A stretch of DNA of 64,000 nucleotides from an uncultured Oscillospiraceae bacterium. GTDB taxonomy: Bacteria; Bacillota; Clostridia; Oscillospirales; Oscillospiraceae. The position numbers were made by a program, and so were the translations under genes. A model generated the notes under the pieces. That model did no database searches. It was not told the origin of the DNA and was given only the letters and a program-made list of their open reading frames with translations. The stretch spans positions 3,050 to 67,049 of the forward strand of contig CANQSF010000011.1 of the NCBI GenBank assembly GCA_947626345.1, read 5' to 3'. Below are positions 45,925-64,000 of this stretch, in pieces (position 1 is the first letter of the stretch; each line of letters starts with the position of its first letter).

Positions 45925-45957
45925 TAAAAAACACCGCCGTTGGGCGGTGTTTTTTTG
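45925..45957. terminator. Bidirectional terminator
   Basis: A6, then ACACCGCC-GTTG-GGCGGTGT, then T6. It lies between the recombinase-like gene (+) and etfA (-). Confidence 0.85.
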
Positions 45958-45970: not shown

Positions 45971-47104
45971 TTATTTCGCGGCCTTGGCGGCCCGGATGGC
46001 CTCGGTCAGCATGGGCGTGACCTTGAAAAGGTCGCCGCAGATGCCGTAGTCCGCGATCTCAAAGATGGGGGCCGTCTCGTTTTTGTTCACCGCGATGATG
46101 CACTCCGAGTCCTGCATACCGGCCTTGTGCTGGATAGCGCCCGAGATGCCCAGCGCCACGTACACCTTCGGGTGCACCGTCTTGCCCGTCTGGCCCACCT
46201 GGTGGTCAGCAGAAAGCCAGCCAGAGTCGATCACCGCGCGGCTGCCGCCTACGACGCCGCCCAGCTCCGCAGCCAGCTCCTCCGCCAGCTTGATGCCGCC
46301 TTCCACGTCCTTGCTGATGCCGCGGCCCACGCTCACGATGAAGTCCGCGCCGATCAGGTCCACCAGCTTCTTCGCCGCCTTCACCACCTCGGTGACCTCG
46401 GTCTGCAGGTCGGCCTCAGAGAGCTCGAACGCCGGCTTCACGATCTGGCAGGCGTCTGCCTTCGCCTGATCGAAGGGGCGCTTTTTCATCACGCCAGGCC
46501 GCACCGTCGCCATCGTGGGACGGAACCGCGGGCAGATGATACTCGCCATCAGGTGGCCGCCGAACGCCGGACGGGTCATCTTCAGGTCACGGGACACGTC
46601 GTGCTTCTCGCCCAGCACCATCGCCGTGTTCAGCCCCTCGATCCGGGCGTCCTCCAACGTGCTGGCCTCATGCAGGAAGTCCTTGTAGATCCCCATGTCC
46701 ACGTCCAGGTGCGTGCAGTCCGCGCACAGGCCCGTGTGCAGCCGCGCCGCACACCGGGGGCCCAGGTCCCGGCCGATGTTCGTCGCGCCGATGAGGAACG
46801 CCTCGGGCTTCAGCTCCTCAATCACGTCGCAGATCACCTTCGCGTACGCGTCGGTGGTGTATACCTTCAGGAGCGGATGCTCGCACACATATACCTTGTC
46901 CGCGCCGTAGCCGCCCAGCTCCTTCGCCAGGCCCTCCACGCCGTCGCCCAAAAGCAGGCCGCACAGCTGAACGCCCAGCTCGTCCGCCAGACGCCGCCCC
47001 TCGCTGATCAGCTCCAGGTCCGTCGGCATCAGCTTCCCGTCACGCTGCTCGCAGAATACCCACACATCCTTGAAAGCAGCCAGGTCCGTATTATTAAAAG
47101 CCAT
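45971..47104 (-). CDS. etfA: Electron transfer flavoprotein, alpha subunit
   Basis: 377 aa. C-terminal FAD motifs GGSRAVIDSGW, QVGQTGKTV and PKVYVALGISGAIQH. It appears to carry a 30-35-aa insertion before TRPAFGG relative to the canonical EtfA as I recall it (unverified). Confidence 0.9.
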   Translation of the reverse strand: MAFNNTDLAAFKDVWVFCEQRDGKLMPTDLELISEGRRLADELGVQLCGLLLGDGVEGLAKELGGYGADKVYVCEHPLLKVYTTDAYAKVICDVIEELKPEAFLIGATNIGRDLGPRCAARLHTGLCADCTHLDVDMGIYKDFLHEASTLEDARIEGLNTAMVLGEKHDVSRDLKMTRPAFGGHLMASIICPRFRPTMATVRPGVMKKRPFDQAKADACQIVKPAFELSEADLQTEVTEVVKAAKKLVDLIGADFIVSVGRGISKDVEGGIKLAEELAAELGGVVGGSRAVIDSGWLSADHQVGQTGKTVHPKVYVALGISGAIQHKAGMQDSECIIAVNKNETAPIFEIADYGICGDLFKVTPMLTEAIRAAKAAK

Positions 47105-47121
47105 TTCCTCTTACTCCTCTC

Positions 47122-47922
47122 TCAGATGATGTGCTTGCCGGCCAGGATGCCTGCCAGCTTCTCGCACGTGCCCATGTCCGCGCCTTCCAGCATCATGCCC
47201 GCGCCCTTCTGCGGCGGCGTGAACGATACCAGGATGTTGGTCGGGGAACCCTTCAAGCCGATGGTGGTCGGGTCGATCAAAGGATCGTCCTTCAGCGCCT
47301 CATAGTCCAGCACCGTCACCGGCTTGCTGTAGGCCTCGAAGATCCCGCCCACGGACATATACCGGGGCTTGTTCAGCTCCTTGATGCAGGTCAGCAGACA
47401 CGGCGTCTTCACCTTGATGGTCATATAGCCGTCCTCCAGCATCCGCTTGACGGTGATGTCGTCCCCGTCCTTGTGGATGTCCGCCGCGTAGGTCACCTGG
47501 GGCAGATGCAGCTTCTCCGCGATCTGGGGGCCCACCTGGGCCGTGTCGCCGTCGATGGCCTGGCGGCCGCACATCACGATGTCGCCCTTCTCCACGCCGA
47601 TCTTGTTCACGCCCGCCGCCACGATCTGAGAGGTGGCGTAGGTATCGCTGCCGCCGAACTCTCGGCCGGAGATGAGGTACCCCTCGTCCGCGCCCATGGC
47701 CAGCAGCTCGCGCAGCATCCCCTCCGCGGGAGGGGGACCCATGGTCACCACGATCACCTTGCAGCCCGTCTCATCCTTCAGCTTCAGGGCAGCCTCCACG
47801 GCGTTCATGTCGTCCGGGTTGGTGATGGTCTCCATAGACGCGCGGTTCAGCGTGCCGTCCGGATTCACCGCCACCTTGCCGGAGGTGTCGGGCACCTGCT
47901 TCACACATACGATAACTTTCAT
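47122..47922 (-). CDS. etfB: Electron transfer flavoprotein, beta subunit
   Basis: 266 aa. MKVIVCVKQVPDT.., with the typical EtfB fold motifs. Confidence 0.9.
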   Translation of the reverse strand: MKVIVCVKQVPDTSGKVAVNPDGTLNRASMETITNPDDMNAVEAALKLKDETGCKVIVVTMGPPPAEGMLRELLAMGADEGYLISGREFGGSDTYATSQIVAAGVNKIGVEKGDIVMCGRQAIDGDTAQVGPQIAEKLHLPQVTYAADIHKDGDDITVKRMLEDGYMTIKVKTPCLLTCIKELNKPRYMSVGGIFEAYSKPVTVLDYEALKDDPLIDPTTIGLKGSPTNILVSFTPPQKGAGMMLEGADMGTCEKLAGILAGKHII

Positions 47923-47935
47923 TTTTACGTCCTCC

Positions 47936-49075
<1,140 letters not shown>

Positions 49076-49091
49076 ATTCCCTTTCTCCTTT

Positions 49092-50570
49092 TCATTCCTT
49101 GATGCCCGCGACGGATTTGGCGAGCTGCTTCTTGCCCTGGATGTTGCCCTGGCGCGCGATCATGATCCGCTGGGCCTGGGGGGAGCCGGCGCCGTGCATG
49201 GACTCGGTGCGGTAGCCCACCGCCGCCGCGCCCAGGCACATGTTCTCCAAAAACCGCATGATCCGCTGCCGGTCCTCGGTGGAGACGCCCTCCTTGGCGG
49301 CGAAGTACTTCTTGCAGATCTCGCCGATGGTCTCGCCCTCCCGGCCCACGGGCAGGTCGGACTCGAAGTCCTTCTGGCTGGGCATGGTGACCATGAGCCC
49401 GCCGGCGATGTCCTCCGCCAGGCGCACGATCTCGTAGGGGAAGCGGGTCACGTTCTGCTTGCACACGTTGGCCAGCAGCAGGTCGATCTGGTAGTTGCCC
49501 GCCTTGGTGGGGCAGCCCTCGCAGGAGCAGGCCACGCCGCAGCAATAGAGGGTCTCGTTCAGGTGGGTCATTTCGATGAGCTTATCCTTCACCGCCGAGG
49601 CCTTCTCCACGCCGTTGTACTCCGCGGCCAGGGCGGCCGCGCCGATGACCACGTCGCCCACGCCCACCTTGCAGCCGCCGTAGCTCTGGCGGTGGTAGCC
49701 GGCGAAGCGCTCCACGATCATGCCGGCGAACTCGGTCTCGCCGTTGAGGAAGATGTACTCGTTGGGGATGAACACGTGGTCCAGCACCACCAGGGCCTCC
49801 TGGCCGCCGAACTTGGCGTTGCCCACGTCGATGTCGCAGCCCTCCTCCAGCTTGCGGGTGTCGCAGCTCTGGCGGCCGTAGATCATGTAAAGGCCGTCGG
49901 CGTCGGTGGGGCAGGCGAAGCTCACCGCCCAGTCCGCGTCCTCCGGACCCATGGAGATGGTGGGCATGAAGATGTGCCAGTGGGAGTTGATGGAGCCGGT
50001 CTGGTGGCACTTGGCCCCGCAGACCACGATGCCGTCGGGCCGCCGCTCCACCACGTGCACATACATGTCCGGGTCGGCCTGGGCGTGGGGAGCCTTGCTC
50101 CGGTCGCCCTTGGGGTCGGTCATGGCACCGTCCACGGTCAGGTCGTTGTCCTGGACGTAGATGAGGAACTTCTTGAAGTTGTCGTGGTAGTGGGTGCCGT
50201 ATTTCTCGTCGATCTCGTAGGTGGAGGAGAACACGGCGTTGAACGCGTCCATGCCCACGCACCGCTGGAAGCAGCTGGCGGTCTTCTGGCCCAGCAGCCG
50301 CTGCATCTTCACCTTCTTCACCAGGTCTTCCGTGGACTGGTGCAGATGGGTGAAGCGGTTGATCCTATGGCCCGTCAGACTGCTGGTAGCGGTCATCAGG
50401 TCTTCATACTCCGGGTTCTGGGCCAGGGCGTAGGTCATGGCCACGCAGTTGATGCTGGGGCGGATCATGGGGTGGTCCACCCAGTTTTCGATCTTCTCGC
50501 CGAACATGTACACCCGGGTGTTCAGCTTGCGAAGGCTGTCGATGTATTCCTTTGCTGTCATCAATGCCAT
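49092..50570 (-). CDS. abfD: 4-hydroxybutyryl-CoA dehydratase / vinylacetyl-CoA delta-isomerase
   Basis: 492 aa. It is near-collinear with the Clostridium aminobutyricum AbfD sequence as I recall it (..YMFGEKIENWVDHPMIRPSINCV.., ..LHQSTEDL..KVKMQRLLGQKTASCFQRCVGMDAFNAV.., ..ERFAGYHRQSYGGCKVGVGDVVIGAAALAA..). Confidence 0.9.
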   Translation of the reverse strand: MALMTAKEYIDSLRKLNTRVYMFGEKIENWVDHPMIRPSINCVAMTYALAQNPEYEDLMTATSSLTGHRINRFTHLHQSTEDLVKKVKMQRLLGQKTASCFQRCVGMDAFNAVFSSTYEIDEKYGTHYHDNFKKFLIYVQDNDLTVDGAMTDPKGDRSKAPHAQADPDMYVHVVERRPDGIVVCGAKCHQTGSINSHWHIFMPTISMGPEDADWAVSFACPTDADGLYMIYGRQSCDTRKLEEGCDIDVGNAKFGGQEALVVLDHVFIPNEYIFLNGETEFAGMIVERFAGYHRQSYGGCKVGVGDVVIGAAALAAEYNGVEKASAVKDKLIEMTHLNETLYCCGVACSCEGCPTKAGNYQIDLLLANVCKQNVTRFPYEIVRLAEDIAGGLMVTMPSQKDFESDLPVGREGETIGEICKKYFAAKEGVSTEDRQRIMRFLENMCLGAAAVGYRTESMHGAGSPQAQRIMIARQGNIQGKKQLAKSVAGIKE

Positions 50571-50587
50571 TGCGGTCCGCTCCTTTT

Positions 50588-52144
50588 TCAGTCGTTGGCC
50601 AGGCCCATCAGCTCATCCCGGAAGATGCGCTCGTCCATGAGCTTCAGGTCGTCGGCGATCTGGGGCTTGAACTCCATCTGGTCCAGCACGTCCTTCTGCA
50701 GGTCCACGCCGGGGGCGATCTCGATGAGGGTGACGCCCTCTGGCCGCAGCTGGAACACCGCCCGCTCGGTGATGTACAGCACCGGCTGGTGCACCTTGTT
50801 GGCGTACACGCCGGAGAAGGTGATGTGCTCCACCTGCTCGACGAACTTCTTCTTGGCGCCCTCCTGGGTGATGACCAGCTTGCCGTCCCGGCACTCGGTC
50901 TTCAGGCCCTTGGCGGTGAAGGTGCCGCAGTAGACCACCTTCTTGGCGTTCTGGGTGATGTCGATGAAGCCGCCGGCGCCGGCCAGACGGGTGCCGAACT
51001 TGGACACGTTCAGGTCGCCGTTGGGGGCCGTCTCCGCCAGGCCCAGGAAGGCCACATCCAGGCCGCCGCCCTGATAGAAGTCGAACTGCACGTTGTGGTC
51101 CAATATGGCCATGGAGTTGGCCGCCGCGCCGAACTGGGTGCCGCCGTAGGGCACGCCGGCGATGGAGCCGGCCTCCACGGTCAGGGTCATCTTGTCGGAG
51201 ATGCCCTCCTCCGCCGCCACGTTGGCGATCTTCTCCGGCGCGCCGGTGCCCAGGTTCACGATGGCGTCCTGGGGCAGCTCCATGGCGGCCCGGCGGGCGA
51301 TGATCTTCTTGGCGTCCAGGGGGATGGGGGGGATGGCGTCCACGGGGATGCGGAACTCGCCGGTGAGCGCCCCGTCATAGGGCATGCCCAGGCACTGCAT
51401 GTTGTCCTCCACGGAGCCCACCACGATGGCGTCCACGTAGATGCCGGGGATCTTCACCAGCTTGGGGTCCAGGGTGCCGCCCTGGACGATCTTCTCCACC
51501 TGGACGATCACCTTGCCGCCGGAGTTCTTGGTGGCCTGGCACTGGGCGGTCACGTCCAGGGGGCCGATCTCCCGGTGGACGGTGCAGTTGCCGTACTCGT
51601 CGGCATAGGAGCCGCGGACGAAGCACACGTCGATGGGGATGCTCTTGTAGAGCAGCCGTTCCTCGCCCTCGATCTCGATGAGCTTGACCAGGTCCTCCTT
51701 CGTCACGTCGTTGAGCTTGCCGCCGCCGTTGCGGGGGTCCACGAAGGTATACAGGCCCACGTGGGTGATGGTGCCGATATTGTGGGCGGCGATGTCCCGG
51801 TACATGTGGGTGATGACGCCCTGGGGCAGGTTATAGGCCTCGATCTTGTTGGCCAGGGCCAGCTCGCCCAGCTTGGCTGCCCGGTCCCAGTGGCCGCCCA
51901 CCACGCGCTTGACCATGCCCTCATGGCCGAAGTGGTCGCCGCCGGTGCCGTCCCGGTGGCCCTGGCCCGCCGCGAAGAACAGCGTCAGGTCCCGGGGATG
52001 GCCGGTCTCCAGAAAGCGCTTTTCCAGCGCTTTGGTCAGGCCCTCCGGGCAGGCGCAGCTGACGAAACCGCCGGTGGAGACGGTGTCGCCGTCCTTCACC
52101 ATCAGCGCCGCTTCCTCGGCGGTGACGATCTTTACTTTCTTCAT
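50588..52144 (-). CDS. Family I acyl-CoA:acetate/3-ketoacid CoA-transferase, fused alpha-beta (Pct/YdiF type)
   Basis: 518 aa. MKKVKIVTAEEAALMVKDGDTVSTGGF.. The length and layout match propionate/acetate CoA-transferase-type enzymes, not the Cat2/AbfT type. Confidence 0.8.
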   Translation of the reverse strand: MKKVKIVTAEEAALMVKDGDTVSTGGFVSCACPEGLTKALEKRFLETGHPRDLTLFFAAGQGHRDGTGGDHFGHEGMVKRVVGGHWDRAAKLGELALANKIEAYNLPQGVITHMYRDIAAHNIGTITHVGLYTFVDPRNGGGKLNDVTKEDLVKLIEIEGEERLLYKSIPIDVCFVRGSYADEYGNCTVHREIGPLDVTAQCQATKNSGGKVIVQVEKIVQGGTLDPKLVKIPGIYVDAIVVGSVEDNMQCLGMPYDGALTGEFRIPVDAIPPIPLDAKKIIARRAAMELPQDAIVNLGTGAPEKIANVAAEEGISDKMTLTVEAGSIAGVPYGGTQFGAAANSMAILDHNVQFDFYQGGGLDVAFLGLAETAPNGDLNVSKFGTRLAGAGGFIDITQNAKKVVYCGTFTAKGLKTECRDGKLVITQEGAKKKFVEQVEHITFSGVYANKVHQPVLYITERAVFQLRPEGVTLIEIAPGVDLQKDVLDQMEFKPQIADDLKLMDERIFRDELMGLAND

Positions 52145-52159
52145 GCCGCTGTCCTCCGC

Positions 52160-52960
52160 TTACTTGTTCTGGAAGTGCTTTTCCTTGCGTTTTTCAAGGA
52201 ACGCGCCCATGCCCTCTTTCTGGTCGGCGGTGGCGTAGCACATGGCGAACAGCTCGTTCTCCAGGGCGATGCCGTCGTCGATGTCCATCTGCATGCCCCG
52301 GTCGATGCAGGCCTTGGCATACTTCACGGCGATGGGGGCGTTGGCGGTGAAGCTCTTGGCCATCTCGATGGCCTTGGGCAGCAGCTCCTCGGGGGGATAC
52401 ACGGCGTTGGCCAGGCCGATGCGCTCAGCCTCGGCGGCGTTGATCTGCCTGCCGGAGAAGATCAGCTCCTTGGCCTTGGCCACGCCCACCCGGCGGGGCA
52501 GACGCTGGGTGCCGGAGAAGCCCGGCGTGATGCCCAGGCCCACCTCGGGCTGGCCGAACTTGGCCCCGCCCTTGCCCTCGGCGTTGGGGCCGGCGGCCAG
52601 GATGATGTCGCAGCTCATGGCCAGCTCGCAGCCGCCGCCCAGGGCGAAGCCGTTCACCGCGGCGATGGTGGGGATCTCCAGCTTCTCGATCCGGCGCATC
52701 AGGGCGCTGCCCCGGCGGCCCCAGGCGCGGCCGGCGGCCACGTCCATGGGATACTGCTCGCCGATGTCGGCCCCGGCCACGAAGGAGCGGCCCTCGCCGG
52801 TGATGATCAGCGCGCCCAGCGTCTTGTCCGCCTCGATCTCGCCGACGGCCTGCTCCAGCTCCGCGATGACCGTGGAGTTCAGGGCGTTCAGGGCCTCGGG
52901 GCGGGCGATGGTCAGAATGGCGATGTTGTCCTGCTTTTCATAGCGAATGGTGTTGTACAT
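52160..52960 (-). CDS. crt: Enoyl-CoA hydratase (crotonase family)
   Basis: Start at M28 of the track ORF (MYNTIRYEKQDNIAILTIARPEALNAL) with a GGGAGGAAG RBS. Motifs FVAGADI and GGGCELAM. 266 aa. Confidence 0.85.
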   Translation of the reverse strand: MYNTIRYEKQDNIAILTIARPEALNALNSTVIAELEQAVGEIEADKTLGALIITGEGRSFVAGADIGEQYPMDVAAGRAWGRRGSALMRRIEKLEIPTIAAVNGFALGGGCELAMSCDIILAAGPNAEGKGGAKFGQPEVGLGITPGFSGTQRLPRRVGVAKAKELIFSGRQINAAEAERIGLANAVYPPEELLPKAIEMAKSFTANAPIAVKYAKACIDRGMQMDIDDGIALENELFAMCYATADQKEGMGAFLEKRKEKHFQNK

Positions 52961-52999
52961 GATGCTTCCTCCCGATAATATGAATAGAGATATAGGCCG

Positions 53000-53030
53000 G
53001 GAAGGATATGACAGCGCGTCATATCCTTCC
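53000..53030 (-). other. Intercistronic 13-bp perfect hairpin between 4hbD and crt
   Basis: GGAAGGATATGAC-(5 nt)-GTCATATCCTTCC with no T tract after it. It is the only sizeable structure inside the 13-gene cluster. Confidence 0.5.
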
Positions 53031-53041
53031 GCTTTTTCCAC

Positions 53042-54223
53042 TCAGTAGCACTTGCGGTAGATGGCCTCTTCGCTTTCCAGATCGAAGGGGTAGTAGGCGT
53101 TGGTCATGAGCCGCTGCTGGTTGGCCTCCACGGACAGGGGGAAGGCCTTGAAGTCCGCCTCGGTGAAGCCGCAGTCCCGCAGGGGCCGCAGAGGCAGGAT
53201 GCGCTGCAGCAGCGCGTTCAGATAGGGGATGGCGTCCTTGGCCTCGCAGCCGGTGATGGAGGCGATGAGCTCCTTGAACTTCATGATCTCGCCGTTGGGA
53301 TCGTGCTCGTCATAGTAGTCCAGGATGGCGCCGAACAGCATATAGTTGCTCTCGCCGTGGGGCACGTGATAGGTGCCGCCCAGAGGGAAGCTCATGCCGT
53401 GCACGGGGCCGCAGCCGGCCTTCAGGAAGGCGATGCCGGCGTAGAAGCTGGCGGTGACGAACTGGTCCATGTACTCGAACCGGGCGTCCTGGCCCTTCTC
53501 GTCCAGCAGCTTGAAGCCGTTGAGGATCAGCTCCATGGCCTTGACGGAGAACAGCTCGCTGGTCATGGTCTTCCGGTGGGGGCTGAGGAAGGACTCGGTG
53601 GCGTGCACCAGCGCATCGATGGCGCTGCAGGCGAAGGGCTTGTAGGGCAGGGTCCGCAGCAGGTCGGGGATGAGGCAGACCTTGTTGGGGATGATGTCGT
53701 CGCTGACCAGGCCCAGCTTGGTCTCGCCGCCGGTGAGGACCCCGTCCTTCTCGTCCTTGACGATGGCCACGGAGATGTTGGTGCACTCCGAGCCGGTGCC
53801 GCAGGTGGTGGGCACGGCGATGACGTCCTTCTCGTGGATGACGGGGAAGCGCTTGAAATAGAGGTTGTGCACCGTGTCGGGCCGCTTGCAGCCCAGAAGC
53901 TTGCATAGGTCCATGATGGCGCCGCCGCCCACGGCGATGATGCGGTCATAGCTGTCGTAGGGGATGGCGTCGTACATGGTCTGGATCATGGCCTCGCTGG
54001 GCTCGCCGGCACCGAACTTCTCCTGGAAGACGTACTGGCACTTCAGGCCAAGCTCCTCCATGAAGGGGTGGTAGATGAACTCGTTGGTGAGCACCACGTC
54101 CCGCTCGCCCAGCTTGAACTCCTCCGCCATCTGGGCAAAGGTCTGGAACTTATATACCGTAGGGGCAAAGATGATCTCTCTCTTGTCCGCCATCAGAGCG
54201 GCGGAAAATGCGTCCATTGCCAT
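53042..54223 (-). CDS. 4hbD: Iron-containing alcohol dehydrogenase, 4-hydroxybutyrate dehydrogenase-like
   Basis: 393 aa. It is collinear with Clostridium kluyveri 4HbD as I recall it (..VYKF.. LTNEFIYHPF.. VFQEKFGAGEPS.. RIIAVGGG.. VPTTCGTGSE.. FSVKAMELILNG.. YHVPHGE.. QQRLM.N.Y.PF). Confidence 0.8.
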   Translation of the reverse strand: MAMDAFSAALMADKREIIFAPTVYKFQTFAQMAEEFKLGERDVVLTNEFIYHPFMEELGLKCQYVFQEKFGAGEPSEAMIQTMYDAIPYDSYDRIIAVGGGAIMDLCKLLGCKRPDTVHNLYFKRFPVIHEKDVIAVPTTCGTGSECTNISVAIVKDEKDGVLTGGETKLGLVSDDIIPNKVCLIPDLLRTLPYKPFACSAIDALVHATESFLSPHRKTMTSELFSVKAMELILNGFKLLDEKGQDARFEYMDQFVTASFYAGIAFLKAGCGPVHGMSFPLGGTYHVPHGESNYMLFGAILDYYDEHDPNGEIMKFKELIASITGCEAKDAIPYLNALLQRILPLRPLRDCGFTEADFKAFPLSVEANQQRLMTNAYYPFDLESEEAIYRKCY

Positions 54224-54260
54224 GGCTCGTTCTACTCCTTTGAAATGATATTTTTACCCG

Positions 54261-55232
54261 TTATTTCCGGGCGATGACTTTCTTCACGGCGGCCTGGATG
54301 TCGGCGGCCCGCAGGCCGTATTCATCCATGAGGAAATCCTGGGGGCCCACCTGGCCGAACCGGTCCTGCACCCCCACGAACTCCAAGGGAGTGGGATGGT
54401 TCTTCGCCAGGCAGCTGGCCACCGCGGCGCCCAGACCGCAGCAGGTGTTGTGGTTCTCGGCGGTGACGATGGCGCCGGTCTCGGCCGCGGCCTTCACCAG
54501 CAGCGCCTCATCCAGGGGCTTCCAGGTGAACATGTCGATCACCCGGATGCTGACGCCCTGGGCCTGCAGGGCCTCGTAGGCCTGCAGGGCCTCGTCCACC
54601 AGGATGCCGGAGGCGACGACGGTGCACACGTCCTTGTCGCTCTCATGCAGCACCACGCCCTTGCCGATCTCGAACTGGGAGCCGGGGGCGTAGATCTGGG
54701 TGACGTCCTTGCGGACGAAGCGGGTGTAGGTGACGCCCTCGGTGTGGATCAGCCCGTACATCACGCTGTACAGCTGGTCGTAGTCGCAGGCGTCGATCAC
54801 CGTGGCGTTGGGGATGGACATATACATCCCCGCGTCCTCCAGGGGCATGTGGGTGCCGCCGTTGAAGGCGGCGGTGACCCCCGCGTCGGAGCCCAGCACA
54901 TGCACCGTCAGCCCCGCGTAGGCCGCGGACATATAGATCTGGTCATAGCACCGGCGGGAGGAGAAGGTGCCGAAGGAGTGGAGGAAGACCTTCTTGCCCG
55001 TGGCGGCCAGGCCCGCGCACACGCCGGCGGCGTTAGCCTCGGCGATGCCGGCCTGCAGCGCCCGGTCCGGGTGCTTTTTCCACAGGCCCTTGGTGTTCAG
55101 ACAGCCCATCAGGTCGCAGTCCACATAGCACACGGAGGGATCGGCGTCCATCATCTCCTCCAGGGCGGTGACGATGGCGTCCCGGCTGGCGCGGGCGTCC
55201 TTTTCATGCTTTCCGATCAAAGTCACGCTCAT
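54261..55232 (-). CDS. Transketolase, C-terminal (pyrimidine-binding) subunit
   Basis: Start MSVTLIG with an AAAGGAGGGAG RBS. 323 aa. Motifs GIAEANAAGVCAGLA and FSSRRCYDQI. Confidence 0.9.
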   Translation of the reverse strand: MSVTLIGKHEKDARASRDAIVTALEEMMDADPSVCYVDCDLMGCLNTKGLWKKHPDRALQAGIAEANAAGVCAGLAATGKKVFLHSFGTFSSRRCYDQIYMSAAYAGLTVHVLGSDAGVTAAFNGGTHMPLEDAGMYMSIPNATVIDACDYDQLYSVMYGLIHTEGVTYTRFVRKDVTQIYAPGSQFEIGKGVVLHESDKDVCTVVASGILVDEALQAYEALQAQGVSIRVIDMFTWKPLDEALLVKAAAETGAIVTAENHNTCCGLGAAVASCLAKNHPTPLEFVGVQDRFGQVGPQDFLMDEYGLRAADIQAAVKKVIARK

Positions 55233-55246
55233 TTTTTCTCCCTCCT

Positions 55247-56089
55247 TTAAGCCTGCCTGGCCGCTTCCAGGGCCTGCTCCGCCGCCAGGATCGCCTCTGC
55301 CCACTGTTCCTCGTTGGGGGAGGAGCTGTGGGCGTGGCTGGCCTCGGCGAAGGTGGCGCCCTTGCCCTTGCAGGTCTTCAGCACGATGCAGCTGGGGGAG
55401 CCCTTGTGGGCGTGGGCCGCCTCCAGCGCGTGGTAGATGGCCGCCACGTCGTGGCCGTCCACCTGCTGGGTGTACAGGCCGAAGGCCGCCACCTTTCCGG
55501 GCAGATCCCCGTGGTCCAGGATCTCGGCGGTGGTGCCGTCCAGCTGATAGCCGTTCATGTCCAGGAACACCACCACGTTGTCCAGCTTATGGGCGGCGGC
55601 GAAGTGGAACGCCTCCCATACCTGGCCCTCGTCGGCCTCGCCGTCGCCCACCACCAGGTAGACCCGGCTGTCCCGGCCGTCCAGCCTGTTGCCCAGGGCC
55701 GCGCCCATGGCGGAGGAGGCCCCCTGGCCCAGAGAGCCGGTGGTCAGATCCACGCCGGGGGTCAGCAGCCGGTCGGTGTGGCTGGGGAAGCGGGTGTGGG
55801 GATGGTTGAGGGTATAGGCCTCCTCGATGGGATAGTAGCCCATCAGGCCGAAGGTGGCGTAGGCCGCCGGACCGGCGTGGCCCTTGCTGAGCACCAGCCA
55901 GTCCCGATCAGGCCAGCGGGGGTCCTTGGGGTCGAAGCGCATGGCCGCGCCGTACAGCACTGCCAGCAGCTCTGCCAGGTCCACCGAGCCGCCCACGTGG
56001 CCGAAGCCCCGGGAGCGGATGACCTTCAGGGTCTCCAGCCGGATCTGGGCCGCCAGGACGTTCAGTTCCTTTACGTTCAGATCTTTCAA
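55247..56089 (-). CDS. Transketolase, N-terminal (ThDP-binding) subunit
   Basis: 280 aa. The only start with an RBS is TTG 56089, with AAGGAGG 7 nt upstream. Motifs GHVGGSVDLAE, LSKGHAGPA and GDGEADEGQVWEA. Confidence 0.85.
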   Translation of the reverse strand: MKDLNVKELNVLAAQIRLETLKVIRSRGFGHVGGSVDLAELLAVLYGAAMRFDPKDPRWPDRDWLVLSKGHAGPAAYATFGLMGYYPIEEAYTLNHPHTRFPSHTDRLLTPGVDLTTGSLGQGASSAMGAALGNRLDGRDSRVYLVVGDGEADEGQVWEAFHFAAAHKLDNVVVFLDMNGYQLDGTTAEILDHGDLPGKVAAFGLYTQQVDGHDVAAIYHALEAAHAHKGSPSCIVLKTCKGKGATFAEASHAHSSSPNEEQWAEAILAAEQALEAARQA

Positions 56090-56114
56090 GATATGTCCTC
56101 CTTGCTGCCGTATC

Positions 56115-57152
56115 TCACATATACAGCGCCGGCTTGTCCATGGTCTCGACTTTGTAGAACTGGGAGGTGCCACGGGAGGCGTTGAGGGCGTCGCCCGCCA
56201 CGCAGGCTACGTAGCCGTCCCAGGCGGAGGGGCCGGTGAGCTTGCCGGCGTGGACGGATTCCACCCACTTGCACATCTCGATGTCGTAGGCCTCGATGAA
56301 GCGCTCCTTCCAGTCGGTCATGATGGGCATGGACTCGGCGGGCTGGACGGTGTCCCAGCCGGCGGGACGGGACCGGCGCACCACCGCGTAGGGATCGGGC
56401 AGCTTCACGGTGCCGTTCTCGCAGACCACCTCGCACTGGATGTCGTAGCCGTAGCCGTCGGCCACCTGGACCTCCACGTCGATGAAGCAGCCCTTCTTGG
56501 TGCGCATGAGCATGACCTGGGGGTTGTCGTAGCCCTTGTCGGAGTTGGCGCTCTGGCGCACCTTCACGCACTGCACGTCCTCATACTCGTCGCCTAAGAG
56601 CCACCGGCAGATGTCCAGCTCGTGGATGGCCACGTTGGTGACGCCGTTCTCGGTCTTGAAGCCCGGGCCCTGAGAGACGTTGCGGTGGCAGGCCTTGATC
56701 AGCAGGGGCGCGCCCAGCTCGCCGGAGTCGATGATCCGCTTCATCTCCGCGTAGCCCCGGTCGTAGTGGCGCATGAAGCCTACCTGGACCATCCGCTTGC
56801 CGATCTCCAGCTCCCGCTTGATGATGTCCTCGCAGTCGGCGGCATTCTGGCTCAGGGGCTTTTCGCAGAAGCACCACTTCTCCTCGGCCAGGGTCTTCAT
56901 CACGTAGTCGTGGTGGGTGGGGTCGATGGAGGTGATCATGACAGCCTCCACCTCGGGGTCCTTGATCATGCCGTCGCAGTCGTTGGCGTAGGAGCGCAGG
57001 CCGTACTTGGCGGCCAGCTCGTCCGCCGCCGCGGGCACGTAGTCGCTCACCGCCACCACCGTGGCGCCGGGGACGGTGTCGATGATGCGGCGGCAGTGGT
57101 CCCTGCCGATGGCGCCGCAGCCGATGATGCCGATCTTCAGAACTTTATCCAT
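56115..57152 (-). CDS. iolG: myo-Inositol 2-dehydrogenase
   Basis: 345 aa. It is collinear with Bacillus subtilis IolG as I recall it (IGIIGCGAIG.., FCEKPL.., VQVGFMRHYD.GY.., YGYDIQCEVV.ENG..KLP.., DW..RF..AYD.E.., GPSAWDGY.A). Confidence 0.9.
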   Translation of the reverse strand: MDKVLKIGIIGCGAIGRDHCRRIIDTVPGATVVAVSDYVPAAADELAAKYGLRSYANDCDGMIKDPEVEAVMITSIDPTHHDYVMKTLAEEKWCFCEKPLSQNAADCEDIIKRELEIGKRMVQVGFMRHYDRGYAEMKRIIDSGELGAPLLIKACHRNVSQGPGFKTENGVTNVAIHELDICRWLLGDEYEDVQCVKVRQSANSDKGYDNPQVMLMRTKKGCFIDVEVQVADGYGYDIQCEVVCENGTVKLPDPYAVVRRSRPAGWDTVQPAESMPIMTDWKERFIEAYDIEMCKWVESVHAGKLTGPSAWDGYVACVAGDALNASRGTSQFYKVETMDKPALYM

Positions 57153-57194
57153 TGTCGTTGCCTTCCTTTTATTACAAATTATATTTGAGAGATA

Positions 57195-59126
57195 TCAATA
57201 CTTGCGGGCGTCCTTCTCGTGGGCCAGATGGTCCTCGTAAGCGGCCACGTTCTCCGGCCGCTGGGAGACCTGGGTGTCGCCCACGCGCCACCAGGAGCCG
57301 TAGCCGTCGGTCATGGTCTTGGGCAGGACCTTGATGTCGATGAGGACGGGGATGTTCTTCACCTTCTTGGCCGCGTCCACCGCCTGGACCAGCTCCTCCA
57401 TGGTGCGGGCCCGGAAGGACACGCAGCCGTAGGCTGCCGCCACGCCGGCGTAGTCGATGTCCATGAACGGGCCGTTCAGGCCGCCGTCCTTGCTGCGGCT
57501 GCGCAGCTCGGTGACCAGGGTGACGTTGCCGTGGCCCACCTGCAGGTTGTTGATGCAGCCGAAGCTGGCGTTGTCGAACAGGCACACCACGATCTTCTTG
57601 TGCTCCTGCACGGCGGTGATCAGCTCCCCGTGGAGCATATTGAAGCTGCCGTCGCCGCAGAAGGCGTAGACCTCGTGCTCGGGGCCCACGGCCAGCTTGG
57701 CGCCCAGGGCGCCGGCGATCTCATAGCCCATGGTGGAGTAGCCGTATTCCATGTTGTAGGTGTCCTGGCCCACGGCACGCCACATGCGCTGCATGTCGCC
57801 GGGCAGGGAGCCGGCCGCGCCGATGGCCACGTCCCCGTCGTCCATGACGGCGTTGATGTATCCCAGGGCGGCGGTCTGGGTCAGCTCCGCGTGCAGATCG
57901 TGGGCGAAGCGCCGGGCGGAGCCGGCGTTGGCGTCGTTGATCAGCGGCTTCCAGGAGTCCTTGTCCTCGAACCGGATGCCGTCCAGCCGCTCCAGCTCCT
58001 TGAACCACTTTGCCTGGGCCTTGCTGACCTCGTCGGTGTAGGGGGCCTTGTAGCCGTCCAGCTTTTTCAGCAGCCGAGGCAGGGCGTCCTTGGCGTCGGC
58101 CACCACGGGGATGGCCTCCATCTTCAGGGCCTGGAACTCGCTGACGTTGATGTTGACGAACCTGCAGCTGTCCTTGAAAAGCCACTTGGAGCTGGTGGTG
58201 AAGTCGGTGTAGCGGGTGCCCACGCCGATGACCAGATCCGCCTTCTTGGCGATCTCGTTGGCGGCGGAGCCGCCGGTGACGCCGATGCCGCCCAGGTTCA
58301 GGGGGTGGGTCCACTCGATGGCGCTCTTGCCGGCCTGGGTCTCACCGAAGGGGATGCCGGTGGCCTCGGCGAAGGCGCGGAACTCGGCGTGGGCCTCGGA
58401 GTAGCGCACGCCGCCGCCGCACACCAGCAGGGGGCGCTTGGCCTTTTTGATGGCCTCCGCCGCCTCGTCCAGGGCCGCCTCGGTGGCGGGACGGCGCTCC
58501 AGCCGCCACACACGCTTCTGGAAGAAGCTGGCGGGGTAATCGTAGGCCTCGCCCTCCACGTCCTGGGGCATGGCGATGCACACCGCGCCGGTGTTGGCCG
58601 GGTCGGTCAGCGTCCGGAAGGCGGAGATCATGGCGCTCATCAGCTGCTCGGGCCGGACGATCCGGTCCCAGTAGCGGCACACGGCCTTGAAGGCGTCGTT
58701 GGTGGAGACGGAGAGGTTATAGGTGTGCTCCACCTGCTGGAGCACCGGATCGGGCTGGCGGCAGGCGTAGGTGTCGCCGGGCAGCACCAGCACGGGGATG
58801 TTGTTGGCGGTGGCGGTGCCGCAGGCGGTGACCATGTTGGCCGCGCCGGGGCCGATGGAGGACGTGACGGCGAAGATCTGCTTGCGTTTCATCTGCTTGG
58901 CGAAGGCCACGGCCGCCTGGGCCATGCCCTGCTCGTTCTTGCCCTGGTAGATCTCCAGGTGCTTGGCCTCCTGGCTCAGCGCCTGGCCCAGACCCACCAC
59001 ATTGCCGTGGCCGGGGATCATGAATACGCCGCGGACAAAGCGGCTCCGGACGCCGTCCACGTCGATATACTGGTTCTCCAAAAAGCGGACCAGCGCCTGG
59101 GCCATGGTCAAACGAACGGTTTTCAC
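57195..59126 (-). CDS. iolD: 3D-(3,5/4)-trihydroxycyclohexane-1,2-dione acylhydrolase (ThDP-dependent)
   Basis: 643 aa. It has long collinear matches to B. subtilis IolD (YQGKNEQGMA.AA.A.. RQPDPVLQQ.E.. RYWDRI.RPEQLMS.. VLPKTMTDGY.SWW.VG). Confidence 0.95.
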   Translation of the reverse strand: MKTVRLTMAQALVRFLENQYIDVDGVRSRFVRGVFMIPGHGNVVGLGQALSQEAKHLEIYQGKNEQGMAQAAVAFAKQMKRKQIFAVTSSIGPGAANMVTACGTATANNIPVLVLPGDTYACRQPDPVLQQVEHTYNLSVSTNDAFKAVCRYWDRIVRPEQLMSAMISAFRTLTDPANTGAVCIAMPQDVEGEAYDYPASFFQKRVWRLERRPATEAALDEAAEAIKKAKRPLLVCGGGVRYSEAHAEFRAFAEATGIPFGETQAGKSAIEWTHPLNLGGIGVTGGSAANEIAKKADLVIGVGTRYTDFTTSSKWLFKDSCRFVNINVSEFQALKMEAIPVVADAKDALPRLLKKLDGYKAPYTDEVSKAQAKWFKELERLDGIRFEDKDSWKPLINDANAGSARRFAHDLHAELTQTAALGYINAVMDDGDVAIGAAGSLPGDMQRMWRAVGQDTYNMEYGYSTMGYEIAGALGAKLAVGPEHEVYAFCGDGSFNMLHGELITAVQEHKKIVVCLFDNASFGCINNLQVGHGNVTLVTELRSRSKDGGLNGPFMDIDYAGVAAAYGCVSFRARTMEELVQAVDAAKKVKNIPVLIDIKVLPKTMTDGYGSWWRVGDTQVSQRPENVAAYEDHLAHEKDARKY

Positions 59127-59177
59127 TTTGGGTACCTCCTTACTTATATCAATATGTCAGGGCGGACGCAAAGGCCG

Positions 59178-59978
59178 TCAGTCCTGAAAGATATGCTCGT
59201 TGGCGTCCGGCTTCCACAGCCAGGCGTGCTCGGGATCGTCGATACGGGTCTTCAGCCAGGGGTCCCCCTCCAGGTGCCGGATGCCCCAGGCGTAGCACAT
59301 GGCGTAGCCGGGCGCGGCGGCCTGGGAGTGGAAGCCGTGGTTGATGACGGCGCAGCCGTTGTGGCCGGTCTTGAAGATCTCCCCGTTGGCAAAGCCAGCC
59401 CCGAAGCCGTCGGGGTAGTCGAAGCGGTAGAAGTACACCTCCGGCTGGGGATGGTGGTGGGGGGGATAGGAGGACCACTTGCCGGGGAAATTGAGCACCT
59501 CCCCCAGCACCATGTTGGAGAAGGGGGCGTTGTCGTAATCGAAGAAGGTCTTGATCTCCCGGCGCATGCAGCCCATCAGCTCGCCGTTGGCCCCGGCGTG
59601 CTGGACCTGCACCGTCTCCGGGGTGTACATCACCGGCTCATAGTCCCGGTCGTTGAGCGTCTTCTGGATGTACAGCTCGCTGTGCTCGTGGGCGGTGAGG
59701 ACGATCTTCGTCTTCCGGGGGGCCAGCAGGCAGAAGGCCTCGTCGTGGAAGCAGTCGGGCCGGTGGGCCTCGGTCACGTGGCCGGCCCAGTCATAGGTCA
59801 CCTCGCCGGCGAACAGCAGCACGGCGGTCTCCTTTTCCGGCTCCTGGATCACGTAGGTGTCCCCCGGCTCCATCACCAGCAGGCCGATGTCCATCTGGGT
59901 GCCCATGTCGTCCACGGCAGAGTCGATGTAGGCGTTGTAGCCCCGCTGCAGCGCATCGTTCTTGGAAAAATAGCTCAT
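59178..59978 (-). CDS. iolB: 5-deoxy-glucuronate isomerase
   Basis: 266 aa. Cupin motif NFPGKWSSYPPHHH, a hallmark of IolB. Confidence 0.9.
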   Translation of the reverse strand: MSYFSKNDALQRGYNAYIDSAVDDMGTQMDIGLLVMEPGDTYVIQEPEKETAVLLFAGEVTYDWAGHVTEAHRPDCFHDEAFCLLAPRKTKIVLTAHEHSELYIQKTLNDRDYEPVMYTPETVQVQHAGANGELMGCMRREIKTFFDYDNAPFSNMVLGEVLNFPGKWSSYPPHHHPQPEVYFYRFDYPDGFGAGFANGEIFKTGHNGCAVINHGFHSQAAAPGYAMCYAWGIRHLEGDPWLKTRIDDPEHAWLWKPDANEHIFQD

Positions 59979-59997
59979 GGCAGATGCTCTCCTTCTA

Positions 59998-60900
59998 TCA
60001 AAGTCCCGTGTGTTCTTTTATATACTTGCGGCCCTTGATGGCGTACTCCAGCGGCTCGGCCTTGGCCGGGTCCTGCTCGGCCTCCACCAGCAGCCACCCC
60101 TGATAGCCGGCGTCGGCCAGGACCTGGAACACCGGGTCGAAGTCCACGTCCCCGTCGCCGGGCACGGTGAAGGCGCCGTTGCGGACGGCCTGCAGGAAGC
60201 TCCAGTCGTTGGCCTTCACCTGCTCCACCACGGCCAGGCGCATGTCCTTCAGGTGGACGTGGCCCACCCGGTCCACGTACTTTTTCAGCATGGCCAGGGG
60301 GTCCTCCCCGGCGAAGGTGAAGTGGCCGGTGTCGTAGCAGAGGAACGCGTACTTCGGGTCGGTGTTTGCCATCATCCGGTCGGTCTCGGCGCTGGTCTGC
60401 ACCACGGTGCCCATGTGGTGGTGGAAGCACAGCTTGAAGCCCCGGTCGGCGGCGATCTTGCCCAGGGTGTTGAGCCCGGCGCAGAACCGGTCCCACTCGC
60501 CGTCGTCCATCACGTGCTTGTGCCCGCCTGTGAGGATGGGGGTGTCCATCTTGCCCTGGATGGAATAACTCTGCTCGCTGACGTTGATGCGGTCAGCGCC
60601 GACGGCCGCGAGGAAGTCCAGGTTGGCGGTGAAGTCGGCGATCTCCTCCTCCATGGGCCGGGTCAGGATGAAGGACGAGTACCAGCGGCTGGCGATGCGC
60701 ATGCCCCGCAGGTCCAGGGCCGCTTTCAGCTCCGCCGGGTCCTTGGGGTACTTGTTGCCGATCTCGCAGCCGGTGAAGCCGGCCAGCGCCATCTCGCTGA
60801 CGGTCTGTTTAAAGGTGTTCTCCGCGCCCAGCTCCGGCATGTCGTCGTTGCACCAGCCGATGGGCGCGATGCCCAGGGATACTTTCTTGGGGTCGAACAT
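59998..60900 (-). CDS. iolE: myo-Inosose-2 dehydratase
   Basis: Start MFDPKKVSLGIAPIGWCNDD with a GAGGAGG RBS. 300 aa. Xylose-isomerase-like TIM barrel with IolE-type N-terminus. Confidence 0.9.
   Translation of the reverse strand: MFDPKKVSLGIAPIGWCNDDMPELGAENTFKQTVSEMALAGFTGCEIGNKYPKDPAELKAALDLRGMRIASRWYSSFILTRPMEEEIADFTANLDFLAAVGADRINVSEQSYSIQGKMDTPILTGGHKHVMDDGEWDRFCAGLNTLGKIAADRGFKLCFHHHMGTVVQTSAETDRMMANTDPKYAFLCYDTGHFTFAGEDPLAMLKKYVDRVGHVHLKDMRLAVVEQVKANDWSFLQAVRNGAFTVPGDGDVDFDPVFQVLADAGYQGWLLVEAEQDPAKAEPLEYAIKGRKYIKEHTGL

Positions 60901-62633: not shown

Positions 62634-64000
<1,367 letters not shown>

Follow-up and report, generated by a model that had tools for sequence, protein, structure and literature searches.

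The canonical pathway of myo-inositol degradation is that of Bacillus subtilis, encoded by the iolABCDEFGHIJ genes (Yoshida et al. 2008, as cited in the available text of PMC8355322 and PMC13311982). Its upper part, consisting of IolG, IolE, IolD and IolB, leads to 2-deoxy-5-keto-D-gluconate (DKG), and its lower part, to which IolC, IolJ and IolA belong, splits this compound into two C3 units with the use of ATP. The DNA described here is a stretch of 64 kb from an uncultured Oscillospiraceae bacterium, referred to below as the window, in which an operon at positions 45971-60900 encodes the same upper pathway, with a transporter alongside. However, IolC, IolJ and IolA are missing from the window, and in their place the operon has a split transketolase, an iron-dependent alcohol dehydrogenase (Fe-ADH) and an acyl-CoA module. 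The lower pathway predicted from these genes would divide DKG into C2 and C4 units and would invest no ATP. No description of a transketolase step in inositol or uronate catabolism was found in the full-text literature searched, a collection in which subscription journals are mostly not covered. An inositol operon with such a different, unphosphorylated C2 + C4 lower pathway appears to be new, with earlier publication possible in the journals outside that coverage.

Two inositol-fermenting gut Clostridia offer the closest physiological comparison. Anaerostipes, which forms propionate, and Dysosmobacter welbionis, which forms butyrate, share with the window IolGEDB, a short-chain CoA-transferase, an enoyl-CoA hydratase and an acyl-CoA dehydrogenase with its electron-transfer flavoprotein (Etf) (available text of PMC8355322 and PMC13311982). 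Dysosmobacter, moreover, is placed in the same family as the window organism, the Oscillospiraceae. Both differ from the window in that IolC and an aldolase yield dihydroxyacetone phosphate (DHAP) and malonic semialdehyde, and the butyrate of D. welbionis is built by condensation of acetyl-CoA (available text of PMC13311982). Term searches of the available text returned no instance of "transketolase" in either paper; in that on D. welbionis, "4-hydroxybutyryl" was likewise not found.

The remainder of the operon is reminiscent of two other systems. The 4-hydroxybutyrate and 4-aminobutyrate fermentation of Clostridium aminobutyricum (AbfH, AbfT, AbfD) and the succinate/4-aminobutyrate pathway to butyrate in gut Firmicutes have in common with the window AbfD, an ADH of the 4-hydroxybutyrate dehydrogenase family, a CoA-transferase and Bcd/Etf. 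The CoA-transferase of the window, however, is of the family-I YdiF type and not of the AbfT/Cat2 type, and the carbon would enter as a sugar-derived, 3-hydroxylated C4 aldehyde instead of succinate semialdehyde, the extra hydroxyl being removed by the crotonase. The other parallel is the sulfo-transketolase pathway of sulfoquinovose degradation. Here, an isomerase makes an unphosphorylated, anionic 6-substituted ketohexose, the split transketolase SqwGH moves C2 units from it to glyceraldehyde-3-phosphate, and an NADH-dependent sulfoacetaldehyde reductase follows. The window shares this succession of isomerase, split transketolase and aldehyde reductase, a likeness in the logic of the pathway. 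It differs in its substrate, which has a carboxylate and a 5-deoxy carbon in place of a sulfonate, in allowing only one round of cleavage, and in metabolizing the C4 product onward rather than excreting it. A second round of cleavage in the sulfo-transketolase manner was considered and rejected on chemical grounds, since the isomerized C4 product would lack the 3-hydroxyl of a transketolase donor. Family scans of the operon proteins revealed neither a sulfoquinovosidase nor a sulfosugar isomerase.

The operon comprises 13 consecutive genes that are all transcribed from the minus strand. Their open reading frames (ORFs) have a third-codon-position GC content of 0.87-0.96, compared to a GC content of about 65% for the window, which is a strong coding signal. 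Profile searches and comparison with solved structures give the order iolE-iolB-iolD-iolG-tktN-tktC-ADH-crt-CoAT-abfD-bcd-etfB-etfA, where CoAT is the CoA-transferase. The spacers, counted from etfA to iolE, are 17, 13, 16, 17, 15, 81, 37, 14, 25, 42, 51 and 19 nt, and the start codons of iolE, tktN, tktC and crt were read directly from the DNA at 60900, 56089 (TTG), 55232 and 52960, respectively. The ORFs, start codons and spacers bear out a preliminary description of this DNA, which had listed 13 minus-strand genes with gaps of 13-81 nt, and the family assignments match its gene order exactly. The same description called the locus a supercluster. The gene content behind that term stands, but the locus is better described as one operon assembled from three modules: iolEBDG, tktN-tktC-ADH and crt-CoAT-abfD-bcd-etfBA.

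The first module has all four upper-pathway genes of a canonical iol operon. The iolE gene, for myo-inosose-2 dehydratase (59998..60900, minus strand), scores 411 bits on TIGR04379, for which the cut-off is 290; its ORF is open to 61029, but the likely start is the ATG at 60900, preceded by a GAGGAGG ribosome-binding site. The iolD gene, for the thiamine diphosphate (ThDP)-dependent trihydroxycyclohexane-1,2-dione ring-opening hydrolase (57195..59126, minus), scores 885 bits on TIGR04377 (cut-off 715). The iolB-like gene, for 5-deoxy-glucuronate isomerase (59178..59978, minus), matches Pfam KduI/IolB with 154 bits and reaches 87 bits on TIGR04378, below the cut-off of 205; its homologues carry the NCBI name 5-deoxy-glucuronate isomerase. 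The iolG-type inositol 2-dehydrogenase (56115..57152, minus) belongs to the Gfo/Idh/MocA family, and its top NCBIfam matches are IolG models (362 and 183 bits), both under their cut-offs. By these scores IolE and IolD are bona fide members of their families, whereas IolB and IolG are recognized at the family level only.

The preliminary description had also noted that iolC, iolJ and iolA are absent from the cluster, and this holds in a scan of the whole window. When the coding-type ORFs of the 64 kb were compared to Pfam, neither a PfkB kinase (iolC) nor an aldehyde dehydrogenase (iolA) came to light. The single class-II aldolase of the window (20691-21848) is under all equivalog cut-offs and lies 24 kb from the operon. 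Six further members of the IolB subfamily were examined by gene calls, and their surroundings to a distance of 10 kb are similarly free of PfkB kinases, class-II aldolases and aldehyde dehydrogenases. Two potential suppliers of these activities were considered. The DeoC/LacD aldolase at 38194-39078 was rejected as a substitute for IolJ: it scores as a true deoxyribose-phosphate aldolase (246 bits, cut-off 117), and infC and a probable integrated element lie between it and the operon. A cluster at 17900-21848 combines the class-II aldolase with a phosphofructokinase, but the latter is not of the PfkB family and the cluster is 24 kb away; an IolC/IolJ role of this cluster is conceivable but has nothing in its favor. 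On the minus strand it comprises the aldolase (385 aa), a protein of the pyrophosphate-dependent phosphofructokinase family, a TauE/SafE exporter and a divergent protein resembling TIM. Because of the exporter, a specialized glycolysis-like pathway, for sulfosugars or other substrates, appears more likely here than housekeeping glycolysis.

The gene for the transketolase N subunit, which binds ThDP (55247..56089, minus), starts with TTG 25 nt past the iolG stop codon and has 228 bits to the split transketolase 6YAK. The C subunit, with the pyrimidine-binding (Pyr) and C domains (54261..55232, minus), has 220 bits to 6YAJ and possesses a non-canonical pocket. Both were aligned with the canonical split enzyme of Carboxydothermus hydrogenoformans (6YAJ/6YAK), positions being given in the numbering of the human transketolase, as we assigned it. 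The N subunit retains the catalytic His residues and the GDG motif. In the C subunit the motif SDAGVTAAFNGGTHMP takes the place of THxGxxxGEDGxxHQ, and the signature of this transketolase can be written as DLMxC ... SDxGVTAxxNGGTHMP. All 64 of the 64 C subunits linked to the ADH carry the substitutions S345C, H416D, E423F and D424N, and all 64 retain R318, the cofactor-activating E366, H428 and R474. In canonical transketolases S345 and H416 are two of the four phosphate ligands, the others being R318 and R474, and D424 is the residue that reads the substrate hydroxyl. Compared to enzymes of EC 2.2.1.1, the window protein thus has the ThDP motif, the activating Glu and the catalytic His, but departs from the sugar-phosphate pocket at S345, H416 and D424 while keeping both Arg residues. 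The enzyme should therefore be catalytically competent with a remodelled distal pocket. By this signature it is a distinct subfamily and probably not the housekeeping enzyme: conserved catalytic residues together with an altered pocket argue against a role in the housekeeping pentose-phosphate pathway. We regard it as fairly probable that its substrate is DKG.

The modular nature of the operon is apparent from comparison with other genomes. An alignment of Fe-ADH homologues was used to scan one genome per species, which recovered 80 loci (designated by L numbers), and all 13 window proteins were compared to these loci by tblastn. The nearest relatives of the ADH, at 97-98% identity, are from metagenome-assembled genomes (MAGs) of uncultured Oscillospiraceae of the rabbit gut, followed by those of Oscillibacter and Dysosmobacter at 91-93%. 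The tktN-tktC pair adjoins the ADH in 56 of the 80 loci. In ten of these loci (L005, L006, L007, L008, L010, L015, L049, L050, L055 and L059) iolEBDG is situated directly upstream in the same order, and in five of the ten the matching acyl-CoA genes follow downstream as far as the contigs extend. The full arrangement is found in the close relatives L005 and L007, the latter having all 13 genes, and in truncated form in L006, L010, L015 and L059. It is also found in the distant MAGs L049 and L050, whose Iol proteins are 75-90% identical to those of the window. That the order of the 13 genes is kept in independent MAGs (L005, L007, L049, L050) shows that it is not a chance arrangement. Thus iolEBDG, the split transketolase and abfD do recur as neighbors across genomes, a point that the preliminary description had left for comparison.

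Parts of the operon also occur by themselves. In L055 the operon stops at the ADH, and consists of iol, tkt and ADH genes only. L008 appears similar, but an insertion sequence (IS)-type transposase with an rve integrase domain (11596-12453) stands immediately after its ADH, where the window has the acyl-CoA module; the truncation may be secondary, and L008 was not accepted as a natural stand-alone unit, L055 being the cleaner case. Conversely, L052, L057 and L063 have tktN-tktC-ADH-crt-CoAT-abfD-bcd, with the etf genes where the locus extends far enough, but no iol genes; upstream of the module are a UxaE-type epimerase, Zn-dependent dehydrogenases and xylose-isomerase-like proteins. In the majority of the Oscillibacter and Dysosmobacter loci, tktN-tktC-ADH stands alone in assorted sugar or sugar-acid contexts, and the Agathobaculum and Butyricicoccus loci have ADH-abfD-CoAT without a transketolase. 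In L088, the sole locus of the latter type with gene calls, thiolase, crotonase and hbd come next. The tktN-tktC-ADH set is therefore a portable module that joins iolEBDG upstream, crt-CoAT-abfD-bcd-etfBA downstream, or both. The transketolase is the partner of the ADH in 56 of the 80 loci, and in others the AbfD module is; the ADH therefore forms the hinge of the arrangement. At three places (L001:5540-12331, L052:4629-11182 and L009:7513-14080) the transketolase, the Fe-ADH or both are found among genes of hexuronate type, namely UxaE tagaturonate/fructuronate epimerase, UxuA, a protein of the mannitol-dehydrogenase family and xylose-isomerase-like proteins. These contexts are a hint that keto-uronates, fructuronate for example, may be degraded by way of a transketolase.

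The same upper-pathway and transketolase genes are found with an entirely different downstream set in a sister operon. Homologues of the IolB subfamily were searched for, and six long contigs (L089-L094) were inspected. Four of them, metagenome contigs of other Clostridia, have one shared co-directional operon (L089:2486-13789, L090:2461-12728, L093:2471-13814 and L094:3664-13928). It encodes, in this order, a type-II phosphorylating glyceraldehyde-3-phosphate dehydrogenase (GAPDH), a phosphoglycerate kinase (PGK) homologue, tktN, tktC, a LarA homologue, malic enzyme, iolE, iolB, iolD and iolG, except that malic enzyme is absent from L094 and iolG from L090. A DeoR regulator is located upstream of the operon in L089 and L094, and ABC transporter genes follow it in L089, L093 and L094. 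L091 and L092 have iolE-B-D(-G) only, and in all six contexts the IolB subfamily consistently adjoins IolE and IolD. The L089 operon, the single copy scanned against NCBIfam, has a LarA homologue that passes the model of the nickel-dependent malate racemase LarAH6 (NF052593, 540 bits, cut-off 500) and a GAPDH that passes the type-II, archaeal-type model (NF003251, 391 bits, cut-off 185). The Iol proteins of the sister operons are 72-88% identical to those of the window. The transketolase C subunits of L089 and L090 are 44-46% identical to that of the window and have S345C, H416D and D424N, with Leu or Met at 423, Lys at 318 and R474 kept.

In the sister operon, malate semialdehyde would be oxidized with phosphate to malyl-4-phosphate by the GAPDH-like enzyme, and the PGK homologue would convert this into malate with formation of ATP. 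The malate would then be racemized and decarboxylated to pyruvate. From the configuration of D-gluconate, in which the C3-OH is on the left in Fischer projection, we derive that malate formed from DKG should be D-(R)-malate, which explains the presence of a racemase ahead of an L-specific malic enzyme. The prediction of D-malate preceded the family scan that identified the LarA homologue as a malate racemase. The combination of GAPDH, PGK, malate racemase and malic enzyme makes sense only if 3-hydroxy-4-oxobutanoate (D-malate semialdehyde) is the product of the transketolase, and the sister operon looks like an ATP-yielding, oxidative version of a transketolase-dependent inositol pathway. The occurrence of an oxidative and a reductive downstream set on the same core of iolEBDG and special transketolase is the strongest evidence for action of the transketolase on DKG.

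Nickel-pincer malate racemases have been described in the LarA superfamily, where a neighboring malic enzyme served as a clue from gene context (available text of PMC7583248 and PMC11770544). All four sister clusters encode a LarA homologue, and three of the four likewise have a malic enzyme gene. The racemase there would turn inositol-derived D-malate into L-malate; the window itself has no LarA gene. The terms "inositol" and "transketolase" were not found by searches of the available text of the two malate racemase papers.

The Fe-ADH that follows the transketolase in the window (53042..54223, minus) is of the 4-hydroxybutyrate dehydrogenase type, the NCBI name carried by its homologues, and its closest solved relative is Cvir-Hbd2 (PDB 30SM, 320 bits). 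The latter, a recently characterized 4-hydroxybutyrate dehydrogenase, is selective for C4 substrates, depends on NADH and uses R348 to recruit the omega-carboxylate (PMC13495136). The window protein conserves the metal ligands D181, H185, H252 and H266, as well as N270 and R348. However, the proposed base Y256 is replaced by Phe, both in the window protein and in all nine aligned sequences, and there is an insertion of about eight residues. This pattern fits an enzyme that would reduce a C4 omega-oxo-acid close to, but not necessarily identical with, succinate semialdehyde.

The third module begins with the crotonase, a short-chain enoyl-CoA hydratase (52160..52960, minus; NF004475, 338 bits, under the cut-off of 394), which starts at the ATG at 52960 behind a GGAGG ribosome-binding site. 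The CoA-transferase (50588..52144, minus) is a family-I enzyme with fused alpha and beta parts, of the YdiF/FadX type, with 465 bits to E. coli YdiF (PDB 2AHU) and 433 bits on NF052271, under the cut-off; it is thus not of the AbfT/Cat2 type, which is marked by the AcetylCoA_hydro families of Pfam. The abfD gene, for 4-hydroxybutyryl-CoA dehydratase/vinylacetyl-CoA isomerase (49092..50570, minus), has a full-length match of 906 bits to 1U8V that spans residues 3-491. The alignment shows no difference in the CFQRC and HRQSYGGC motifs, and the window protein is about 80% identical to AbfD of C. aminobutyricum, with the Cys-x3-Cys and His/Cys cluster-ligand motifs conserved. The [4Fe-4S] ligands of 1U8V are Cys99, Cys103, His292 and Cys299. 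The match and the ligands leave the gene as what it had earlier been called, a bona fide abfD. The bcd gene, for a short-chain acyl-CoA dehydrogenase of the Bcd/AcrC type (47936..49075, minus), has C. difficile Bcd as its nearest solved relative (5OL2_C, 504 bits) and scores 536 bits on the AcrC model, under the cut-off of 640. The small and large Etf subunits, in contrast, pass the models of the acryloyl-CoA reductase subunits: etfB (47122..47922, minus) has 502 bits on NF042971 (AcrB; cut-off 475) and etfA (45971..47104, minus) has 687 bits on NF042970 (AcrA; cut-off 600).

The identities of these genes, the anatomy of the operon, the co-occurrence of its modules and the pocket signature of the transketolase are shown by the sequences. 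What we infer are the substrates of the enzymes of the second and third modules, the acceptor, and the succession of reactions that follows the ADH. IolG, IolE, IolD and IolB would convert inositol into DKG, a ketose with a free HOCH2-CO- end. TktNC would take C6 and C5 from DKG as a glycolaldehyde unit and pass this to an aldehyde; glyceraldehyde-3-phosphate is the probable acceptor, and xylulose-5-phosphate would then be formed. The remainder of DKG would be OHC-CHOH-CH2-COO-, that is, 3-hydroxy-4-oxobutanoate (D-malate semialdehyde), which resembles glyceraldehyde-3-phosphate closely in shape and charge. Read from its ketol end, DKG is by our derivation 3S,4R (D-threo), as is required of transketolase donors. 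The Fe-ADH would reduce 3-hydroxy-4-oxobutanoate with NADH to (R)-3,4-dihydroxybutanoate, of which the YdiF-type CoA-transferase would form the CoA ester. The crotonase would then remove the 3-hydroxyl from 3,4-dihydroxybutyryl-CoA to give 4-hydroxycrotonyl-CoA; we derive that the (R)-3,4-dihydroxybutyryl-CoA is spatially equal to (S)-3-hydroxybutyryl-CoA, the classical crotonase substrate. Bcd/EtfAB would reduce 4-hydroxycrotonyl-CoA to 4-hydroxybutyryl-CoA, AbfD would dehydrate this to crotonyl-CoA, and a further reduction by Bcd/EtfAB would produce butyryl-CoA, from which the CoA-transferase would free butyrate.

This scheme employs every gene of the operon, including the crotonase, and requires neither hbd nor thiolase, which the operon lacks. 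It would have no need for IolC, IolJ or IolA, and no ATP would be spent on DKG. If one third of the crotonyl-CoA is oxidized to acetyl-CoA, we calculate a balance of 3 inositol to 2 butyrate, 4 acetate, 2 CO2 and 2 H2O. The preliminary description had proposed, as a speculative reading, that the transketolase takes the ketol of DKG and leaves a C4 oxo- or hydroxy-acid. The pocket signature, the tkt-ADH module and the sister operons with malate racemase now support this on comparative and chemical grounds. The subsequent funnel that it envisaged, through the Fe-ADH, CoA-transferase and AbfD to crotonyl-CoA and butyrate, is in turn favored by the linkage of the modules; the crotonase had no role in it and is here assigned one. 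The non-phosphorylative, transketolase-dependent route from myo-inositol to butyrate, taken in full as written above, seems to us marginally on the probable side.

The operon may be a collection of co-located but separate modules. Unlinked enzymes of the IolC and IolJ type would then split DKG into DHAP and malonic semialdehyde, and the Fe-ADH, the CoA-transferase, the crotonase and an Acr-type Bcd-Etf would lead to propionate via 3-hydroxypropionate and acryloyl-CoA, while the transketolase would take part in pentose-phosphate traffic and AbfD in an unrelated 4-hydroxybutyrate/succinate branch. The inositol-to-propionate pathway of Anaerostipes uses just such a CoA-transferase, enoyl-CoA hydratase and acryloyl-CoA reductase/Etf (available text of PMC8355322), labelled 3-hydroxypropionate has been reported from inositol-fed gut enrichment cultures (PMC13617567), and the window does have a class-II aldolase. 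The Etf subunits pass the cut-offs derived from the C. propionicum acryloyl-CoA reductase, and the dehydrogenase has its 536 bits on AcrC. However, no PfkB kinase was found in the window, the six IolB-subfamily contexts are equally devoid of the lower-pathway enzymes within 10 kb, and the nearest characterized ADH is restricted to C4 substrates. Separate modules would leave a bona fide AbfD idle, would not account for the variant with GAPDH, PGK, malate racemase and malic enzyme, and would leave unexplained why a transketolase whose pocket is non-canonical and invariant accompanies the ADH in 56 of the 80 loci and iolEBDG in two unrelated architectures. We consider this explanation unlikely. 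The conversion of malonic semialdehyde to propionate had already been raised as an alternative in the preliminary description, with the objection that AbfD and the transketolase would go unexplained. That objection stands, but the Etf evidence alone gives no ground for dismissing the alternative, as both subunits pass the AcrA and AcrB cut-offs.

A different course is conceivable after the same transketolase cleavage, if AbfD acts directly on 3,4-dihydroxybutyryl-CoA, in the manner of a diol dehydratase, and forms the enol of acetoacetyl-CoA. Acetoacetyl-CoA would then be cleaved into two molecules of acetyl-CoA, or an unlinked Hbd would reduce it, and the crotonase and Bcd/Etf would retain their textbook substrates. 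The established mechanism of AbfD, with deprotonation at C2 and C3 and loss of the 4-OH from a ketyl radical, would chemically tolerate a 3-hydroxyl, and the Agathobaculum clusters place thiolase and hbd beside ADH-abfD-CoAT, as L063 has both upstream. The window operon, however, has neither hbd nor thiolase, the roughly 80% identity to an enzyme specific for 4-hydroxybutyryl-CoA argues for the ordinary substrate, and the position of crt straight after the ADH and ahead of the CoA-transferase gene suggests an early step for the crotonase; such a use of AbfD is quite improbable. It is more improbable by far that the operon degrades another substrate altogether, such as a hexuronate, 5-keto-gluconate or another cyclitol, and that the iol names are misannotations at the family level. 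IolB and IolG are indeed under their equivalog cut-offs, and the tkt-ADH pair is seen elsewhere beside the hexuronate-type genes UxaE, UxuA and a mannitol-dehydrogenase-family protein. But IolE and IolD pass strict cut-offs, all four iol families occur together and with a sugar-type ABC transporter, and the IolB subfamily is consistently found beside IolE and IolD.

Several observations weigh against the transketolase-dependent route to butyrate. The H416D substitution introduces an acidic residue into what is supposed to be a carboxylate-binding pocket, an adaptation that is not obvious. L054 has the ADH immediately behind iolEBDG and no transketolase. The tkt-ADH pair also exists in contexts without iol genes and may therefore act more broadly on 5-keto-aldonates or keto-uronates, or on another substrate entirely. 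The Fe-ADH is 75-78% identical to copies that are adjacent to abfD without a transketolase and could be a plain succinate-semialdehyde reductase. The close identity of AbfD to the 4-hydroxybutyryl-CoA-specific enzyme is consistent with the proposed route without being proof of it, and the Etf subunits fit a C3 route to propionate as well as a C4 route. The negative result for iolC, iolJ and iolA in this genome is confined to the 64-kb window. Lastly, 13C labelling in D. welbionis, which also favors the separate modules, was interpreted as C3-C4 aldol cleavage following phosphorylation by IolC (available text of PMC13311982).

The labelling data themselves deserve a comment. [4-13C]- and [4,5-13C2]-inositol were reported to give only [4-13C]- and [3,4-13C2]-butyrate, respectively (available text of PMC13311982). 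If labelled and unlabelled acetyl-CoA condensed at random, [2-13C]- and [1,2-13C2]-butyrate would be expected in addition. The tkt-ADH pair is present in Dysosmobacter genomes (L019, L020, L025, L029), and its part in the inositol catabolism of that genus may therefore merit re-examination.

The operon is closed by a bidirectional intrinsic terminator (45928..45956) that consists of A7, the hairpin CACCGCC-CAAC-GGCGGTG and T6. The hairpin proper, at 45935-45949, is situated 3' of etfA, and its A7 and T6 flanks would allow termination in both directions. A scan found no terminator-like site on the minus strand within 45971-60900, in agreement with the earlier placement of the only terminator after etfA. 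The structure previously noted at 53000-53030 is real as well: it is a minus-strand stem-loop with a stem of 13 bp and a loop of 5 nt, and no T tract on the transcribed strand. It is located in the 81-nt spacer between ADH and crt, at the border of the iol-tkt-ADH and acyl-CoA parts. In the closest relatives (L005, L006, L007, L012) the stem is kept and the loop varies, whereas the hairpin is not present in the distant ADH-crt loci examined (L049, L050, L052, L057, L063). A role as a terminator that splits the operon was rejected because the T tract is lacking and because the distant loci do without the hairpin. The stem-loop may be an RNA-level element that determines how strongly one half of the operon is expressed compared to the other.

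Upstream of iolE is an AT-rich, divergent control region of 428 nt (60901..61328), shared with the transporter genes. Within it, at 61107-61125, is the 19-bp palindrome TTCTGTCATATAGACAGAA, of the form TTCTGTC-N5-GACAGAA, which is kept upstream of iolE in L007 and L010 and is a candidate operator for a regulator. The 9-mer CTGTCATAT is common to this palindrome and the hairpin at 53000, and has three matches in the window compared to 0.22 expected. A second inverted repeat, TTGCCCAAAACG...CGTTTTGGGCAA, is located at about 61217-61246 in the same region. Divergent from iolE, on the plus strand, is the gene for a sugar-type ABC substrate-binding protein (61329..62447; Pfam Peripla_BP_4, 123 bits), which has a counterpart with 97% identity in the equivalent position in L007 and L010 and probably imports inositol. 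The gene for a sugar ABC transporter ATPase with two ATP-binding domains (62634..64000, plus) follows and continues past the end of the window.

Elsewhere in the window, the stretch at 40400-45930, directly downstream of the operon terminator, has a lowered GC content of 57-59%. Two genes resembling tyrosine recombinases (40888-41787 and 45070-45912) flank a 1001-aa FIVAR-domain protein (41993-44998), and this stretch probably represents an element that integrated between infC and the operon. An AdoCbl-II (cobalamin) riboswitch at 25491-25585 (minus) lies upstream of genes for a FecCD-type permease and a Peripla_BP_2 binding protein (23313-25342), which probably form a B12-regulated uptake system. 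A region of about 1.8 kb at 28200-30000, with a markedly lower GC content of 0.54, has no ORF with the codon-position GC typical of the genome; a tRNA gene is nearby, at 30485-30564.

Taken together, the window operon and its sisters would represent an unrecognized lower branch of inositol catabolism in gut Clostridia, a proposal for which we hold the case for and against to be evenly balanced. In this branch a split transketolase would cleave unphosphorylated DKG into a C2 unit and D-malate semialdehyde. The reductive form, found in the window, would carry the intact C4 unit to butyrate via 3,4-dihydroxybutyrate and 4-hydroxybutyryl-CoA. The oxidative form, of the L089 type, would gain ATP through the GAPDH- and PGK-like steps and would give the nickel-pincer malate racemases a first physiological role. 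The tkt-ADH module may also serve hexuronates.

Plant foods are rich in inositol and phytate, and a link to metabolic and liver health has been drawn for the butyrate or propionate that gut bacteria make from them (available text of PMC8355322 and PMC13311982). A review of 2025 describes the inositol-to-butyrate pathway as incompletely characterized and reports, as unpublished data, that Intestinibacillus massiliensis forms butyrate from inositol (PMC12482443). A 2026 survey of MAGs from the hen gut found iolGEDB to be far more widespread than iolC and iolJ (PMC13617567). If the pathway proposed here is correct, a transketolase-dependent lower part would account for this gap between iolGEDB and iolC/iolJ. 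It would also be a direct, ATP-saving C4 route to butyrate, and its genes would be markers with which the formation of butyrate from inositol could be predicted in metagenomes. The transketolase would represent a new specificity class of its family, and the sister operons would suggest a natural source of D-malate and hence a function for malate racemases.

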